A DNA stretch of 64,000 nucleotides, taken from a virus. The notes beneath the pieces were generated by a model that worked only from the letters and a program-made list of their open reading frames with translations, was not told the origin of the DNA and made no database searches. Within the stretch, counting starts at the first letter, position 1; every line of letters begins with the position of its first letter. Location of the stretch: positions 32,001 through 96,000 of the IMG/VR virus record IMGVR_UViG_3300032241_002567; one strand, given 5' to 3'. This document shows, piece after piece, positions 12,057 to 63,071 of this stretch. A program made the position numbers and the translations under genes.

Positions 12057-12368
12057 TTAAATTTTATTTTGTAAATATAATTGGTTTGAAATATATTCTG
12101 AATAAGCAATAGATTCGTCTATTTGCTTACAAAGATACGAATTAATTCCGTAATAATTCATATAGTTTTTATAAGTATCTGTTTCTTCCACAGTTAATGG
12201 TATATACTCTATATCCTTTAAAATAGAATCTATTTTTCTATCTCTATTAACCGCTTTTAATTCTCTTTCTATTTCTTTAGCAAGAAAAATATCTTTTTCG
12301 TAAATATCAGAATGCATAGTTATATTAAAATTCCCATTCATCCCATTTTTGTTTGTTAAATTCATCAT
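12057..12368 (-). CDS. Small NRDRKIDSIL-module protein
   Basis: KAVNRDRKIDSILKDIEYIPLTVEETDTYKNY; start uncertain (overlaps polymerase end). Confidence 0.65.
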   Translation of the reverse strand: MMNLTNKNGMNGNFNITMHSDIYEKDIFLAKEIERELKAVNRDRKIDSILKDIEYIPLTVEETDTYKNYMNYYGINSYLCKQIDESIAYSEYISNQLYLQNKI

Positions 12369-13857
12369 CTGTATAATCTTCATCAGTTTCTTCTTGTTTT
12401 TTCTTTTGTAATGAACTACCAAATATATCCAATACAACTGATAATCTTTTTGTTATTTCTGGCATTCCTAATGGTTCTATAATTGAATTGATAGGAGATA
12501 AGATACATTTATCAAATTGTTCGTCTAAATCTATTTCAGGCGCAATTTCAATAGGATAAGAACCACGATTAAATGCGAATACCGAATTAATTTTTTTATT
12601 CTTACAATAATAATATTTTATTTTAGAACCAGATTTTAAGAATTCATATTTAGATTGTAAATCTTTATTTTTATATAACAACCAATTATAATAAGCGGAA
12701 GCTTTTACCGCAAAATGAGCACCGTTTACAAATAATAATTTATTTTTATCATCCAAAACTTTTTCATTATAATTAGAGCAACTAGATTGCATACTAATCT
12801 CATCAATTCTATCCGGAACACATAAATCAAATTCTTTTTTAAGATTTTTAACCAATTTAAGTAATTCCCGAATGTTAAAAGTATCTGGGTGACTAAATAA
12901 ATATTTAATAATATCTACGATTTTATCTCTCGCAAATGATGGTGTAGAACGTCTAACTAGCTCAACTCCCTTTGGATAGATATAATTTAATCTTTCATAA
13001 GGTATGCCATCTTCAAATACTATGTGTTGAATATATTTCTTTTTGGCAATATAAATAACAGATTCACTAATTCTTTCTAATTCAAAATCTTCTTTATTTG
13101 TAACTCCATAACTTTCAGCATATTCTTCAAGACATTTCTTAAAATATCCAGCATAACGATAATAGTCAAGTCCATGTATATAATCTAATTCATAAGACCA
13201 GTTCCATTTAAGTTTTGATTCTAATTTATTATCATTGATAAACTTATCAAAATCACGATTTTTGATCCATTTACCATCCGCTATAAATAATTCTATTTCA
13301 TCTAAATTTTGAATATCGGACAAATTTTCATAAATACCTAAACAATTAGGATTATCTGATTTAATTTCTTCTCTACCTTTTAGAATTATATGCTTTTTAG
13401 TTATTTTATCTAAATTAGAAAAGAAAAGATTTTTCCAATCTGAATGTGTTATTGCTGGTTTAAATGATACGAATAAAGAATCTGTGTCAGCGTAAATGCT
13501 AACTGGCTCTTTTTCTATTTGCTTTATTTTTCTAATGCAAACTTTTTGATGTAATTCTGTATCTTTATGCCATTGATTATACCAATAATCTTCGTTAACA
13601 CGATTCATTGTTTTAGTCAAATCTCTACCCTGAGCTGTGATTGAAGATGCCACATGGTTATTAAATAGAACGAAATAGGATGCCGCGAAGGCGCCATATG
13701 ATTTTTGCCCCACCATTTCTGGTGGGGCCATTTAAGATCCATTAAGAACTAACTTGAGTGCTAATTGTAAGGCATTGAAATAATCAACATCCTTTTTCAA
13801 GTTAGCAGCTTGAGTTCTTAATGAATCTAATTGTATTAATTTTTCTTCTTTTGTCAT
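12325..13857 (-). CDS. Family B DNA polymerase, C-terminal subunit (gp43B-like), interrupted in motif B by a 36-nt insert
   Basis: Unannotated 41-aa 5' ORF 13857-13732 ends QLALKLVLNGS*. The same frame resumes YGAFA...ITAQG...YADTDS...KKKY...KGVELVRRSTP. No exonuclease domain or motif A. Confidence 0.93.
13699..13734 (-). other. Candidate translational-bypass element (stop, hairpin, landing codon)
   Basis: mRNA GGA UCU [UAA AUG GCCCCACCA GAAA UGGUGGGGC AAAAA UCA] UAU GGC; perfect 9-bp stem at 13707-13728. Confidence 0.6.
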
Positions 13858-13866
13858 TAAAAAGAT

Positions 13867-14772
13867 ATGTTTTTAACTTATAAAACTAAACTAAAAGAAA
13901 GTTTTTTATATAAAAATATATATTTTATTATTATGTTAAAAAACAAAAAGATTGAAGTTTATATTTCATACAGAAATATAACTCACTATAAAAAATTAGG
14001 CTATAACCCCGAATTAAATGAGAATTTGGAAATCGATGTTTATGATTTACCGACATCTTCACATGTTAAAATTGATGCTATTTGTGAAATCTGTAAAGCG
14101 GAAATAAATATAAGATATCATAAATATATTGAAAATAAGAAAAGGCATGGTTTTTATGGCTGTAAAAAATGTTCAAGACAAAAAGCTTCTTTAACTATGT
14201 TCGATAAATATGGAGTTTATAATGTTTCAGAATTAGAGGAATGTAAGAATAAAAAAGAAGAAACATATTTAAAAAAATATGGATATAAAACCAATTTAAT
14301 TTCCCCAGATTATATTTCACTTATAAAAGAAAAATTGAAAGAAAAATATAATACAGAAAATTGGTATGAGATTAGAAACGGTCAAGGTTCTCCTAAAAAA
14401 TTAATAATTTTTGCAGAATCAAAAGAATATACCGAGATAAGTTTTAATTATGATAATCAATTCATGAATAGTGACTATATTATGTATAGGAATGAAGTTC
14501 GTAGACTTACTAAGACTAATGAAAAATTGTTATTCCAAAATTGGAATGGTGAAGATTTTTATGATAAAGAAATTATAAGTAATAATTTTATTTTAGATTT
14601 TAATGACCCAAATTATCCAACTATCGATCATAAAATATCTATTTATTATGGTTTCAAAAATAATATGCAGCCAAAAGATATCGCAAAAATAGAAAATCTT
14701 TGTATCACAAAGAGAAGTATTAATTCTTCAAAAAATAGTAAAAATGAATCAGAATTTATTCGTGAAGATTAA
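13867..14772 (+). CDS. Free-standing HNH-type homing endonuclease
   Basis: CEIC..CKKC, KYGV/KYGY repeats, PTIDHKISI...NLCITKRSINSSKN; start may be the second Met (13933); divergent from the polymerase. Confidence 0.75.
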   Translation: MFLTYKTKLKESFLYKNIYFIIMLKNKKIEVYISYRNITHYKKLGYNPELNENLEIDVYDLPTSSHVKIDAICEICKAEINIRYHKYIENKKRHGFYGCKKCSRQKASLTMFDKYGVYNVSELEECKNKKEETYLKKYGYKTNLISPDYISLIKEKLKEKYNTENWYEIRNGQGSPKKLIIFAESKEYTEISFNYDNQFMNSDYIMYRNEVRRLTKTNEKLLFQNWNGEDFYDKEIISNNFILDFNDPNYPTIDHKISIYYGFKNNMQPKDIAKIENLCITKRSINSSKNSKNESEFIRED

Positions 14773-59876: not shown

Positions 59877-62800
59877 ATGACAATAGCCAAAAAGCAACAA
59901 CAACAAGAAGAAAACAAGAAATTTATATTTACAACCAAAAATGTATCAGAAATTTCTGAACAAATGAGCGATGGTGTTATTATTAAAAGATACATGAATC
60001 CATGGTTTAAAGGTGAAGTTGGAGTTCGAAGATCTGGTATATCTTTTGGTATAACTCAAGATGAAGTGCAAGAATATATTAGATGTATGGATGACGTACA
60101 ATATTTTGCAGAAAAATATTGTCAAATCAAAAGAGAAGATGGTTCTATTGGACCAATTAAATTAAGAGATTATCAAAAAGGTATATTAGATCTTTATAAA
60201 AATCCAAGAGTTATATTATGCGCCAGTCGTCAAAGTGGTAAGGCATTACGTGACAATTCCTATGTGTGGACCATTTATGGTAAGAAATTTATTTCTGATT
60301 TAAAAGTGGGAGAAAAAATATTTGGGGATGATGGTAAATTAACTACAGTCACCGGAGTATTTCCACAGGGCAAAAAACAGCTTTATAAAATAACATTCTC
60401 GGATAATACATCAGTTGAATGTTGTGGTGAACATCTTTGGGGATTATATAACCATGAAAGAATTTATAAAGTTATGCAATTAAATGATTTTAAAGATAAC
60501 TATTTAACTAAAAGAGGGGATAGTAAATTTTACACAAAAGTAGCACCTTGTGTTGAATATGAAACGAAAGAGTTGAAAATAGATCCTTATTTTTTAGGGT
60601 TATTAATTGGTGATGGTGGTATTTCAAATAAAGGAAATTATATAACATCAATAGATGAATCAATTATAAATTATTGTAGAGAAGAGGTAAAAAATTATAA
60701 TTGTGAATTAGTTTTATCAGATAGATGTACATATAGAATAACCACTTTAACTAAAGGTAAAAACAATATATTAACTGGGTTATTAGATGAATTTAATTTA
60801 AAAGTTAAATCATACGAAAAACATATTCCAAATATTTATTTAACTTCGGATAAATCACAAAGAATTCAATTATTACAAGGTTTAATGGATACTGATGGTT
60901 GCGTTGATTCAAAAAAAGGTGGTGTTGAATTTTGCACCACTTCCAAACAATTATCTATTGATTTTGTTGAATTATGCAATTCTCTTGGTATAAAAACATC
61001 AGCAACTACAAGACAAACTTCATTTACCTATAAAGGTGAAAAAAAATTAGGTAGATTGTCATATCTTATAAAAATGTATGTTAATAACACCGATTTTAAT
61101 ATCTTTAAATTAGAGAGAAAAAATGTCAATGTTAGAAAAGATAAAAAATTTAATTTGGCAACATATAGAGGTATTGAAAAAATTGAAAAAATTGAAATTG
61201 ATAATTGTACATGCATTTCAGTGGACAATAAAAGTAAATTATTTTTAACAAATAATTTTATACCAACACATAATACAATCAATGCGGCAATCTCAATTTT
61301 GCATTTTATTACTTTTAATAATGATAAAAATGTCATGATTGTGGCAAATCTTCGTGATACTACTATCGAAATTGTAGATAAGATAAAATCTATTTATGTT
61401 AATTTACCTTTCTTTTTAAAAGTAGGTATTAAAAACTGGAATCAAAAATCTATGGTTTGCGAAAATGGATGTAAAATTAGAACAGCTGCGAGAAGTAAAG
61501 CTCCTGCGATTGGTTTTACAATTGACTTCCTTTATTTGGACGAATTTGCGCATATTCCATCGAATATTATTGAGCCTTATTATACAGCAGTTTATCCTAT
61601 CGTATCAGCGGTTAATAATTCTAAGATAGTTATAACATCAACCCCAAAGGGTATGAATTTATTTTATAAATTATTAATAGATTCAGAAAGAGATGAATTA
61701 GATCCTTTAAAAACTAATTTTAAATCAAAAAGAATATATTGGTATGAAGTAGAAGGAAGATTTGTCACATATTTTCGTTTATTTGATAATAAATTATTTG
61801 AATATGGTTTAACAAAAGAAGATGTTTTTGAACAGGTTAAAGCAGCATTTCCACAAACTAAAGTTGAAATGAAATGGATAGCTGATTTAGAAAAACATGT
61901 AATTCATATTTATAATAAACATGAAGGTATCATTACACCGTCAGAAGATGTCAAAAAATTCATGGTTGAAAAAGACGATAAACAAATATTTATTCAACAA
62001 CTTGCATATGTAACTACTTGGCAAGAAGAAACAATAAAAGAAATTGGTGGCGAAGATGCCTTTAACCAAGAATATGGATTGAGATTTGTTGATGGCTCGC
62101 GTTCGTTGTTGAGCGAGGCATTAATCGATGATTTATTAAAAAATAAAAAACCTTATATACATTATCCTTCTTATGAATTTGATAGAAAATTGAAGTTTAA
62201 TTATGAAGATTTAAAGTTTGTTGATGATACTTCAATATTTTCTCCACTTGATAGGAAAAAAATGAAAATTATTTTATCAGTAGATATATCAGAAGGATTA
62301 GGACAAGATTATTCAGTAATTAATATGTTTAGAATTACACCAAAACCAATCGAAACAATTGAAAATTATAAAAGGGAATATAAATATTTATCTGACTTTT
62401 TTCATTTACAACAATTTGGTATATATAGATCAAACCTTGTATCTGTAAGACAATTGGCGGAATTGTTTTATGTATTATCTTTTGAGTATTTTGATCCAGA
62501 AAATGTTAAAGCAGTAGTAGAATATAATACTTATGGAGGACAATTTTTAGCGGAAATGCCACATCTATTTGATGGTAATAATAATTACGGTTCTGGAATA
62601 TTTTTCCGTTATAAACATAGAATAGACTCAGAAGAAGAAAAAATAGGTTTAAGAATTACTAGTAATAAAGAATTTTTAGTTAAGGATTATCAGGAACATA
62701 TGAATAAAAGAAATTTTGAAATTAATAATGCAACAAATATAAATGAAATAACCACATTTATAAAACATGTATTGCCTTCTGGAAATATAAGATATGCGGC

Positions 62801-63071
62801 TGATACTGGTAATGATGATACAGTAATGACTATTGTAAATGCATCAAGTGTTTTTTCAAAATTTATATTTAGAGAAATGGTAGAATCCGCAGCAGTCGAA
62901 TTAGTTGATGCTAATACAATTAAATATTTTAATGATATTTTAAAAAATCAAGAGTATCCTGATTATGATAAGGCGGATTATTCTGCTCTAAATAATATAA
63001 CTAGACAAAGAAAATTTGTAAATCAATACGGTAATAAAAATACTTATGGTGGACAAAATAATTGGTTTTAA
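59877..63071 (+). CDS. Terminase large subunit (gp17-like) containing an intein
   Basis: YFAEKY, LRDYQ, SRQSGK|T, LYLDEFAH, ITSTPKG, FNQEY, VDISEGLGQDYS, DDTVM. Confidence 0.97.
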   Translation: MTIAKKQQQQEENKKFIFTTKNVSEISEQMSDGVIIKRYMNPWFKGEVGVRRSGISFGITQDEVQEYIRCMDDVQYFAEKYCQIKREDGSIGPIKLRDYQKGILDLYKNPRVILCASRQSGKALRDNSYVWTIYGKKFISDLKVGEKIFGDDGKLTTVTGVFPQGKKQLYKITFSDNTSVECCGEHLWGLYNHERIYKVMQLNDFKDNYLTKRGDSKFYTKVAPCVEYETKELKIDPYFLGLLIGDGGISNKGNYITSIDESIINYCREEVKNYNCELVLSDRCTYRITTLTKGKNNILTGLLDEFNLKVKSYEKHIPNIYLTSDKSQRIQLLQGLMDTDGCVDSKKGGVEFCTTSKQLSIDFVELCNSLGIKTSATTRQTSFTYKGEKKLGRLSYLIKMYVNNTDFNIFKLERKNVNVRKDKKFNLATYRGIEKIEKIEIDNCTCISVDNKSKLFLTNNFIPTHNTINAAISILHFITFNNDKNVMIVANLRDTTIEIVDKIKSIYVNLPFFLKVGIKNWNQKSMVCENGCKIRTAARSKAPAIGFTIDFLYLDEFAHIPSNIIEPYYTAVYPIVSAVNNSKIVITSTPKGMNLFYKLLIDSERDELDPLKTNFKSKRIYWYEVEGRFVTYFRLFDNKLFEYGLTKEDVFEQVKAAFPQTKVEMKWIADLEKHVIHIYNKHEGIITPSEDVKKFMVEKDDKQIFIQQLAYVTTWQEETIKEIGGEDAFNQEYGLRFVDGSRSLLSEALIDDLLKNKKPYIHYPSYEFDRKLKFNYEDLKFVDDTSIFSPLDRKKMKIILSVDISEGLGQDYSVINMFRITPKPIETIENYKREYKYLSDFFHLQQFGIYRSNLVSVRQLAELFYVLSFEYFDPENVKAVVEYNTYGGQFLAEMPHLFDGNNNYGSGIFFRYKHRIDSEEEKIGLRITSNKEFLVKDYQEHMNKRNFEINNATNINEITTFIKHVLPSGNIRYAADTGNDDTVMTIVNASSVFSKFIFREMVESAAVELVDANTIKYFNDILKNQEYPDYDKADYSALNNITRQRKFVNQYGNKNTYGGQNNWF
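60243..61274 (+). mobile_element. Class-3 intein with LAGLIDADG endonuclease in Walker A of terminase
   Basis: Starts with Ala (ALRDNS); CCGEHLW, CTCISV, IPTHN|T (WCT triad); LGLLIGDG and LQGLMDTDG; 344 aa. Confidence 0.92.

Follow-up and report, generated by a model that had tools for sequence, protein, structure and literature searches.

A hairpin insert in motif B of a viral DNA polymerase gene as a candidate translational bypass element

Efficient hopping of ribosomes over tens of nucleotides has been demonstrated at the bench for one phage gene, gene 60 of T4, and is otherwise known only from the mitochondria of one yeast lineage. In gene 60, a take-off codon is followed by a stop codon, a hairpin and a matched landing codon, and these elements lie within the cassette of an HNH endonuclease, MobA (bioRxiv 10.1101/2022.08.31.505936; PMC5462505). 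We describe here a comparable arrangement in a 64,000-nucleotide (nt) stretch of viral DNA, hereafter the window, which comprises bases 32001–96000 of the 143.8-kb IMG/VR viral contig IMGVR_UViG_3300032241_002567 (26% GC; CheckV completeness ~26%). In this window, 36 nt containing a stop codon and a stable hairpin interrupt the gene for the C-terminal subunit of a family B DNA polymerase within its conserved motif B. Comparison of the locus with its relatives makes it probable, although by no means assured, that these 36 nt form a programmed translational bypass element resembling that of gene 60, which would protect the polymerase gene from the endonuclease of its own cassette.

Related systems have been described in several settings. 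Among the homologues of gene 60 there are some in which the landing codon departs from the take-off codon at no base but the wobble base, and several of these genes combine a weak take-off codon with a strong landing codon; published homology searches have identified further phage bypass cases only in topoisomerase genes (bioRxiv 10.1101/2022.08.31.505936; PMC5462505). Our own full-text searches of the literature gave the same picture: every bypass cassette that they turned up lay in a topoisomerase gene, no polymerase gene was among them, and no publication of the insert family described below came to light. The byp elements of the mitochondria of Magnusiomyces capitatus are GC-rich hairpin inserts of 27–55 nt in an AT-rich genome, where they occur at 81 places in 12 genes with lengths that are independent of the reading frame, and their bypass depends on relaxed decoding in these mitochondria, with a codon in the A site that is otherwise unused (PMC5009743). 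A third point of comparison is provided by the free-standing endonucleases, introns and inteins that occur at polymerase motifs in T4-like phages, where selfish nucleases are placed at the most conserved DNA of an essential gene, with a patchy distribution and co-conversion of flanking sequence (PMC2988022).

Layout of the interrupted polymerase gene

Two open reading frames (ORFs) on the minus strand, at 13732–13857 (41 codons) and 12325–13731 (468 codons), jointly encode the C-terminal subunit of the polymerase. The parts of the gene and of the insert are as follows, in window coordinates and in the order in which a ribosome would meet them.

13735–13857, minus strand: 5′ coding segment of the polymerase C-subunit, 41 codons from ATG to Ser41, encoding the fingers helix and the first half of motif B (K-x3-N-G-S), assigned by codon-for-codon alignment with the N-termini of uninterrupted homologues
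13855–13857, minus strand: polymerase start codon, ATG
13735–13737, minus strand: proposed take-off codon, Ser TCT (UCU), the last codon ahead of the insert that matches the homologues
13732–13734, minus strand: in-frame TAA stop codon adjoining the take-off codon on its 3′ side
13729–13731, minus strand: ATG adjoining the TAA
13707–13728, minus strand: perfect 9-bp GC-rich hairpin with a GAAA (GNRA) tetraloop, beginning 6 nt past the take-off codon
13702–13706, minus strand: AAAAA spacer between the hairpin and the landing codon
13699–13701, minus strand: Ser TCA (UCA), proposed as the landing codon and encoding the same residue as the take-off codon; TAT, 13696–13698, would be the next codon read
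13693–13698, minus strand: TAT GGC, the first codons of the resumed frame
12325–13698, minus strand: 3′ coding segment of the polymerase C-subunit, encoding the Y-G of motif B, motif C (YADTDS) and the thumb (Pfam DNA_pol_B, E = 9e-15), with its stop codon at 12325–12327

More than 100 homologues of 475–500 amino acids (aa) all start with MTKEEK and contain an unbroken KLVLNGSYGAF. The window has 12 extra codons at a point where 14 aligned homologues, and the N-termini of 120 homologues, read this sequence continuously, and the segment that follows the insert is 75% identical to uninterrupted homologues of 499 aa. The distance from TCT to TAT is exactly 36 nt, and the DNA of the window holds two serine codons for the one serine of the protein motif. 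As would be expected of a bypassed region, the gap lies inside an ORF whose two flanks jointly encode one conserved protein. An initial annotation of this DNA had proposed that the 41-codon ORF supplies the half of motif B that is missing from the longer one, and both the layout and the alignment of homologues agree with this exactly. The parts that it had read in the insert (UCU, UAA, a 9-bp stem, GAAA, AAAAA and UCA) were confirmed base by base, and the imperfect direct repeat that it noted at the flanks (ATCTTA/ATCATA) is present.

The insert hairpin is the only hairpin of the form C4...G4 with a stem of at least 6 bp in the whole 143.8-kb contig, and no other copy of the insert was found in the window when up to 3 mismatches were allowed. 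The 91-nt region folds at −30 kcal/mol (z = −3.6 relative to shuffled sequences). Its minimum-energy fold also includes a 7-bp stem-loop in coding sequence, 10–30 nt upstream of the take-off codon (13747–13766, minus strand), and a small stem-loop just past the landing site; gene 60 likewise uses 5′ and 3′ stem-loops. A role of the hairpin as a transcription terminator was rejected because no U-run follows it on either strand. We claim no Shine-Dalgarno role for its G-rich arm, and direct reading of the sequence ahead of the polymerase ATG revealed no Shine-Dalgarno-like sequence there. The insert does not appear to be an artifact of assembly, inasmuch as the likely source run contains the stretch unchanged. 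A contig from another study is identical to the window downstream and diverges from it precisely where the insert ends on its 3′ side.

Throughout this phage group, the polymerase is encoded by two genes. The gene for the N-terminal subunit (~515 aa, ending in the fingers domain) lies ~100 kb from the C-subunit gene in the relatives G003 and G004 (loci L090 and L091), and was not found on the 143.8-kb contig. No near-identical phage DNA was found by megablast, and an exact database look-up of the 468-aa ORF returned no record; the closest named phage records are those of uncultured “huge phages” of 634–642 kb.

We propose a mobile cassette with three components: the HNH homing endonuclease gene that lies next to the polymerase gene, the 41 codons with which the C-subunit gene begins, and the insert. 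During translation, the ribosome would read the 41 codons and halt with its P site occupied by peptidyl-tRNA(Ser) paired to UCU and its A site at UAA, and the very stable hairpin that starts 6 nt downstream would block normal progress. The anticodon would then release the weakly paired, U-ending codon, the ribosome would slide across 33 nt, the same tRNA would re-pair on the A-ending UCA, and decoding would restart at UAU. The outcome would be a single polypeptide in which the K-x3-N-G-S-Y-G motif is intact. At the level of DNA, the insert splits the highly conserved motif-B sequence, the presumed target of the endonuclease; with their target split, carriers would escape cleavage, and the cassette would home into relatives that lack the insert.

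Likenesses to gene 60 are extensive. Both are split essential replication genes with a short first segment (41 codons in the window and 46 in gene 60), and both have a stop after the take-off codon, a stable tetraloop hairpin, a landing codon that is matched or different at the wobble base, and an adjacent HNH gene. Nevertheless, the two also differ in several respects. The interrupted sequence is polymerase motif B rather than a topoisomerase gene, so that the split of genes 39 and 60 that hosts the MobA cassette has no counterpart here. The gap is shorter, with 33 nt between the codons as against a bypass of 50 nt, and inserts in the related genes described below measure 36–48 nt and occupy five insertion sites as opposed to a single site (give or take a codon). 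The peptide encoded ahead of the gap belongs to the conserved enzyme itself, whereas that of gene 60 is an added extension, and the endonuclease is divergently transcribed. No sequence similarity between the two was seen, and the likely host group is different (AT-rich huge phages, with no Shine-Dalgarno sequence before the polymerase start). The likeness to byp elements resides in the GC-rich hairpin, the range of insert lengths, the AT-rich genome and the indifference of insert length to reading frame, but in place of copies dispersed over many genes there is a single such hairpin in 143.8 kb (with ~26% of the genome seen), and byp elements have no tie to a homing endonuclease. The T4-like insertions in polymerase motifs share the placement of a selfish nuclease, the patchy distribution and the co-conversion of neighboring sequence, but the insert of the window is too short for a self-splicing intron and its stop codons exclude an intein.

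Inserts at five sites in related polymerase genes

Truncated homologues first led us to loci with similar inserts, six codons upstream. A census was then drawn from 80 viral and 80 metagenomic loci, which yielded 142 loci with both anchors. Inserts were present in 80 of these (56 unique sequences) and absent from 62. Per-element statistics refer to 55 unique inserts; counts within this family share ancestry and are not phylogenetically independent. Every insert is 36–48 nt long and contains a hairpin formed by a C-run and a G-run. The inserts occupy five sites within 10 codons of motif B, with 5 unique inserts after Ala, 24 after Leu, 2 after Val, 1 after Ser (that of the window) and 23 after Tyr. 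The element type closest to that of the window is found in L006, which likewise has 36 nt, a GAAA loop and an adjacent stop, but which lies three codons away and carries GUU/GUA instead of UCU/UCA. One locus (L138; ERZ724522 NODE-30) contains two hairpin inserts in one gene, after Leu and after Tyr, for a total of 78 extra nt; if bypass is right, ribosomes on this polymerase gene must hop twice in the space of 10 codons. When viral contigs were scanned with a degenerate pattern for elements at the Ser site, two matches were returned, both of them chance occurrences in unrelated genes.

The lengths of the 55 unique inserts are distributed 15/23/17 modulo 3, with no preference for multiples of three. 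This indifference to reading frame argues that the inserts are not translated through. What is retained across the family is the structure. All of the hairpins are stable, with a mean insert folding energy of −20.7 kcal/mol, and GNRA or UUCG tetraloops are found in 20 of the unique inserts. Stem positions 6–10 each show 4–6 pair types with pairing kept, and there are 41 distinct arms. Within the family stems, 56 G:U pairs were counted against 2 C/A mismatches, and the sense strand gives the more stable fold in 48 of 55 inserts; this excess of G:U pairs and the greater stability of the sense strand indicate that the structure has been selected as mRNA, not as DNA or antisense RNA. The onset of the hairpin is constant, at 5–6 nt past the take-off codon, whereas the A-rich 3′ spacers extend 0–10 nt from the last paired nucleotide of the predicted fold. 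A fixed 5′ distance combined with a variable 3′ spacer would be expected if the far end were found by codon scanning and not by a ruler.

The codons at the ends of the inserts point in the same direction. The last codon of the insert is synonymous with the codon preceding it in 40 of the 55 elements, though the protein has the residue only once. This codon pair follows the site of insertion and varies only synonymously (CUU/CUA, GUU/GUA or GUU, UCU/UCA, UAU/UAC or UAU, GCU/GCA or GCU). A landing codon that matches the take-off codon is characteristic of bypass, and the match is complete at four of the five sites, with a third of the elements matched at the Tyr site. The take-off codon ends in U in 51 of the 55, as compared with fractions of 0.27–0.65 at the same positions in insert-free genes, and landing codons are mostly the A-ending member of the codon box, or the C-ending member in the case of Tyr. 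By general wobble rules, A- and C-ending landing codons should pair better than the U-ending take-off codons, which would amount to a weak take-off and a strong landing. Another property expected of bypass elements, an in-frame stop close to the take-off codon, is seen within two codons in 46 of the 55, and TAG, TAA and TGA are all used. The initial annotation had favored bypass and had called for an alignment of homologues to examine the presence and absence of inserts, stem covariation and matched codons. This alignment came out as bypass predicts, and the frame-blind lengths and early stops lend further support to that interpretation.

The adjacent endonuclease gene and the distribution of inserts

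The polymerase gene of the window is flanked upstream by the following features.

13933–14772, plus strand: homing endonuclease gene of the HNH type, encoding 279 aa when counted from the start that its homologues share, divergent from the polymerase gene and 76 nt from its start codon (PHROG “homing endonuclease”, E = 7e-7)
13858–13932, no strand: AT-rich divergent intergenic region between the endonuclease start and the polymerase start, as read from the sequence

The ORF defined mechanically for the endonuclease begins 22 codons upstream (13867–13932, plus strand) of a start that is common to the homologues (MLKNKK/MIKNDK), and the true start is probably at 13933. The protein contains DUF7487 repeats, an invariant DHK...N...NL..TK..N motif and a CxxC...CxxC zinc-finger pair. 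Its HNH domain is not recognized by Pfam, and neither a PDB sequence search nor a Foldseek search with the whole model gave a clear match; a wide structural search with the C-terminal domain did match HNH nucleases (4h9d, Z 8.1, with a root-mean-square deviation of 3.6 over 86 residues; 5h0o, Z 6.6).

An upstream HNH homologue is closely associated with the inserts. Among loci with enough upstream sequence, it was present in 48 of 73 that bear inserts and in 1 of 46 that do not, and some of the upstream copies are fragments. An HNH-family endonuclease that travels with the gap is also a defining property of the MobA/gene 60 cassette. This tight linkage fits the earlier suggestion that the insert could protect against a homing endonuclease; for the other purpose then suggested, a regulatory valve, the comparative data offer no support. 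In two more loci with inserts, a GIY-YIG query found a match at this upstream position, which was read directly in L005. This locus, the nearest relative of the window, has a Leu-site insert and, at the position of the HNH gene, a GIY-YIG-type ORF of 254 aa (L005:1662–2426, minus strand); here the gap seems to have outlasted an exchange of the nuclease. Loss or exchange of the endonuclease among relatives has likewise been reported for gene 60 homologues.

The distribution of inserts is patchy. On a tree of 103 polymerases, the insert state requires at least 22 changes (gains or losses), of which 15 are forced by supported branches. The polymerases of L007 and L008 are nearly identical, and L007 has both an endonuclease gene and a 39-nt insert, whereas L008 has neither. 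L032 and L038 encode identical downstream proteins and carry different cassettes with inserts at different sites, and their DNA homology starts at the end of motif B. We infer from this pattern a homing cassette, in which the insert would split the probable target of the nuclease.

Two further observations concern neighboring genes. In L011, L030 and L038, ORFs of 143–177 aa lie just upstream of the polymerase gene, and their N-termini resemble, by eye only, those of bacterial initiation factor 3 (IF-3); a phage IF-3, if real, beside a gene that possibly needs unusual translation would be worth a look. The other genes of the window include those for a primase, a UvsY-like protein and, at 59877–63071 (plus strand), a T4-type large terminase of 1064 aa with an intein that contains Hint and LAGLIDADG homing-endonuclease domains. 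The intein is one more selfish element that this phage carries in an essential gene.

Bypass and its alternatives

Several observations weigh against bypass and need to be set beside those that suggest it. At the Tyr site, 15 of the 23 unique elements lack a synonymous landing codon. Eleven of these 15 match the take-off codon at two of three bases, as do some take-off and landing triplets of byp elements (PMC5009743), but the remaining 4 match at one base only. In most relatives a sense codon stands between take-off codon and stop, which is a departure from gene 60. None of the 142 loci has a further element at the Ser site of the window, so that site-specific support amounts to one sequence. 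A stable stem-loop near the take-off codon that is conserved as RNA structure is what bypass would call for, but in the window it starts 6 nt past that codon, whereas the hairpin of gene 60 includes it, and the two may not work in quite the same way. Conservation of the upstream 41 residues is seen with or without the insert, as ordinary polymerase sequence in which no insert-specific nascent-peptide signal, of the sort required by gene 60, is recognizable. There are no tRNA genes on the contig (~26% of the genome), so that a single tRNA(Ser) for both UCU and UCA is an assumption of the model. Finally, no RNA run was listed as containing this sequence.

Frame-independent lengths and the conservation of both flanks would fit excision of the insert as well as they fit hopping. 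The insert could be cut from the mRNA and the ends rejoined, either by an RNA endonuclease and ligase of the phage or host or by a trans-acting ribozyme; we consider this unlikely. Generalized to the family, it would make the inserts 36–48-nt hairpin micro-introns of phage polymerase genes, which some unknown enzyme system would cut out before rejoining the ends, and in that form it appears slightly more doubtful. The 15 Tyr-site elements without a synonymous landing codon would then need no special pleading, and a U stands ahead of nearly every insert, as it does at the 5′ splice sites of group I introns. Excision nonetheless does not account for the fact that 40 of the 55 inserts end, on their 3′ side, in a synonymous duplicate of the preceding codon, nor for the change of that codon with the site, and leaves unexplained in-frame stops that vary in identity and position. 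The distance from the hairpin to the 3′ boundary ranges over 0–10 nt, which makes a structural ruler unlikely, and no splice motif resembling a bulge-helix-bulge (extended pairing of the insert flanks) was seen by eye in the window. To our knowledge, no mRNA cut-and-rejoin system of this kind is known from bacteria or phages. Lengths of 36–48 nt fall far below those of any self-splicing intron and no terminal G is conserved. For the insert of the window in particular, a group I or II intron, whose catalytic core with its conserved helices takes up a few hundred nucleotides, was rejected: it measures 36 nt, and Rfam, searched at E up to 10, matched it to no intron or ribozyme, in keeping with the initial remarks that it lacks an omega-G and is too short for a group I intron. 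Should micro-introns prove true, neither bacteria nor their viruses would have furnished an earlier case of protein-dependent mRNA splicing of such a kind.

Re-initiation at the AUG once translation has terminated at the UAA, raised as an alternative in the initial annotation, would give a 41-aa finger peptide and a 468-aa protein and, with the separate N-terminal subunit, a three-piece polymerase. For the in-frame element of the window this is possible, since the UAA and AUG are adjacent, the 36-nt insert keeps the frame and gene callers predict the 468-aa ORF. Family B polymerases also tolerate a split near the finger tip, and those of this phage group are naturally split; an engineered split Pfu polymerase is reported to be active (PMC3061061). 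Re-initiation would, in contrast, place the break within an invariant motif, between S and YG, with the addition of 10 foreign residues, and the −20 kcal/mol hairpin directly after the AUG should hinder initiation. It fails for most relatives: 40 of the 55 inserts change the frame and 35 have a resume frame that is free of start codons (ATG, GTG or TTG), yet conservation of the motif persists past the insert, and L024, an in-frame relative, has a second stop just ahead of its resume codon. We therefore regard re-initiation as improbable.

It could also be supposed that the insert inactivates this copy, as a decaying or immunity-only allele, and that the polymerase comes from a second copy outside the contig or from a co-infecting phage. 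As the contig represents only ~26% of the estimated genome, a second copy could lie elsewhere, but the comparative evidence makes this very improbable. Over the 30 codons that precede the insert, the ratio of nonsynonymous to synonymous polymorphism (pN/pS) stands at 0.26 for genes with an insert and at 0.22 for genes without one, and purifying selection on both flanks equals that on intact genes. The 80 insert-bearing loci of the 142 carry no other lesions, nearly identical polymerases occur with and without inserts, and relatives that are 86–89% complete have only one C-subunit gene, which is interrupted.

Least credible of all is translation of the insert, by stop readthrough or recoding where it is in frame and by frameshifting elsewhere, with the addition of 12–16 residues to motif B: although the relatives named in phage records are huge phages and some huge phages are known to reassign stop codons, and although 21 of the 40 out-of-frame inserts could be linked by one early frameshift, the other 19 could not, all three stop codons are used in the family, 12 inserts close all three frames, the encoded peptides are not conserved while the RNA stem is, extra residues in K-x3-N-S-x-Y-G would disrupt a catalytic helix, and the other ORFs of the window are long under the standard code.

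If translational bypass is the correct explanation, the polymerase inserts would constitute a second phage family of such elements, unrelated to that of gene 60 and housed in another essential gene, with dozens of variants, five sites and one double insert. Confirmation would show that ribosome hopping is a recurrent evolutionary solution, one that lets homing endonucleases immunize their own target. The family would also offer a natural mutagenesis series, in stem, loop, spacer, position of the stop, and weak U-ending take-off versus stronger landing codons, that could reveal what the ribosome requires in order to hop. In addition, gene callers render these polymerases as two ORFs or truncate them, which affects the annotation of polymerase markers in viromes.

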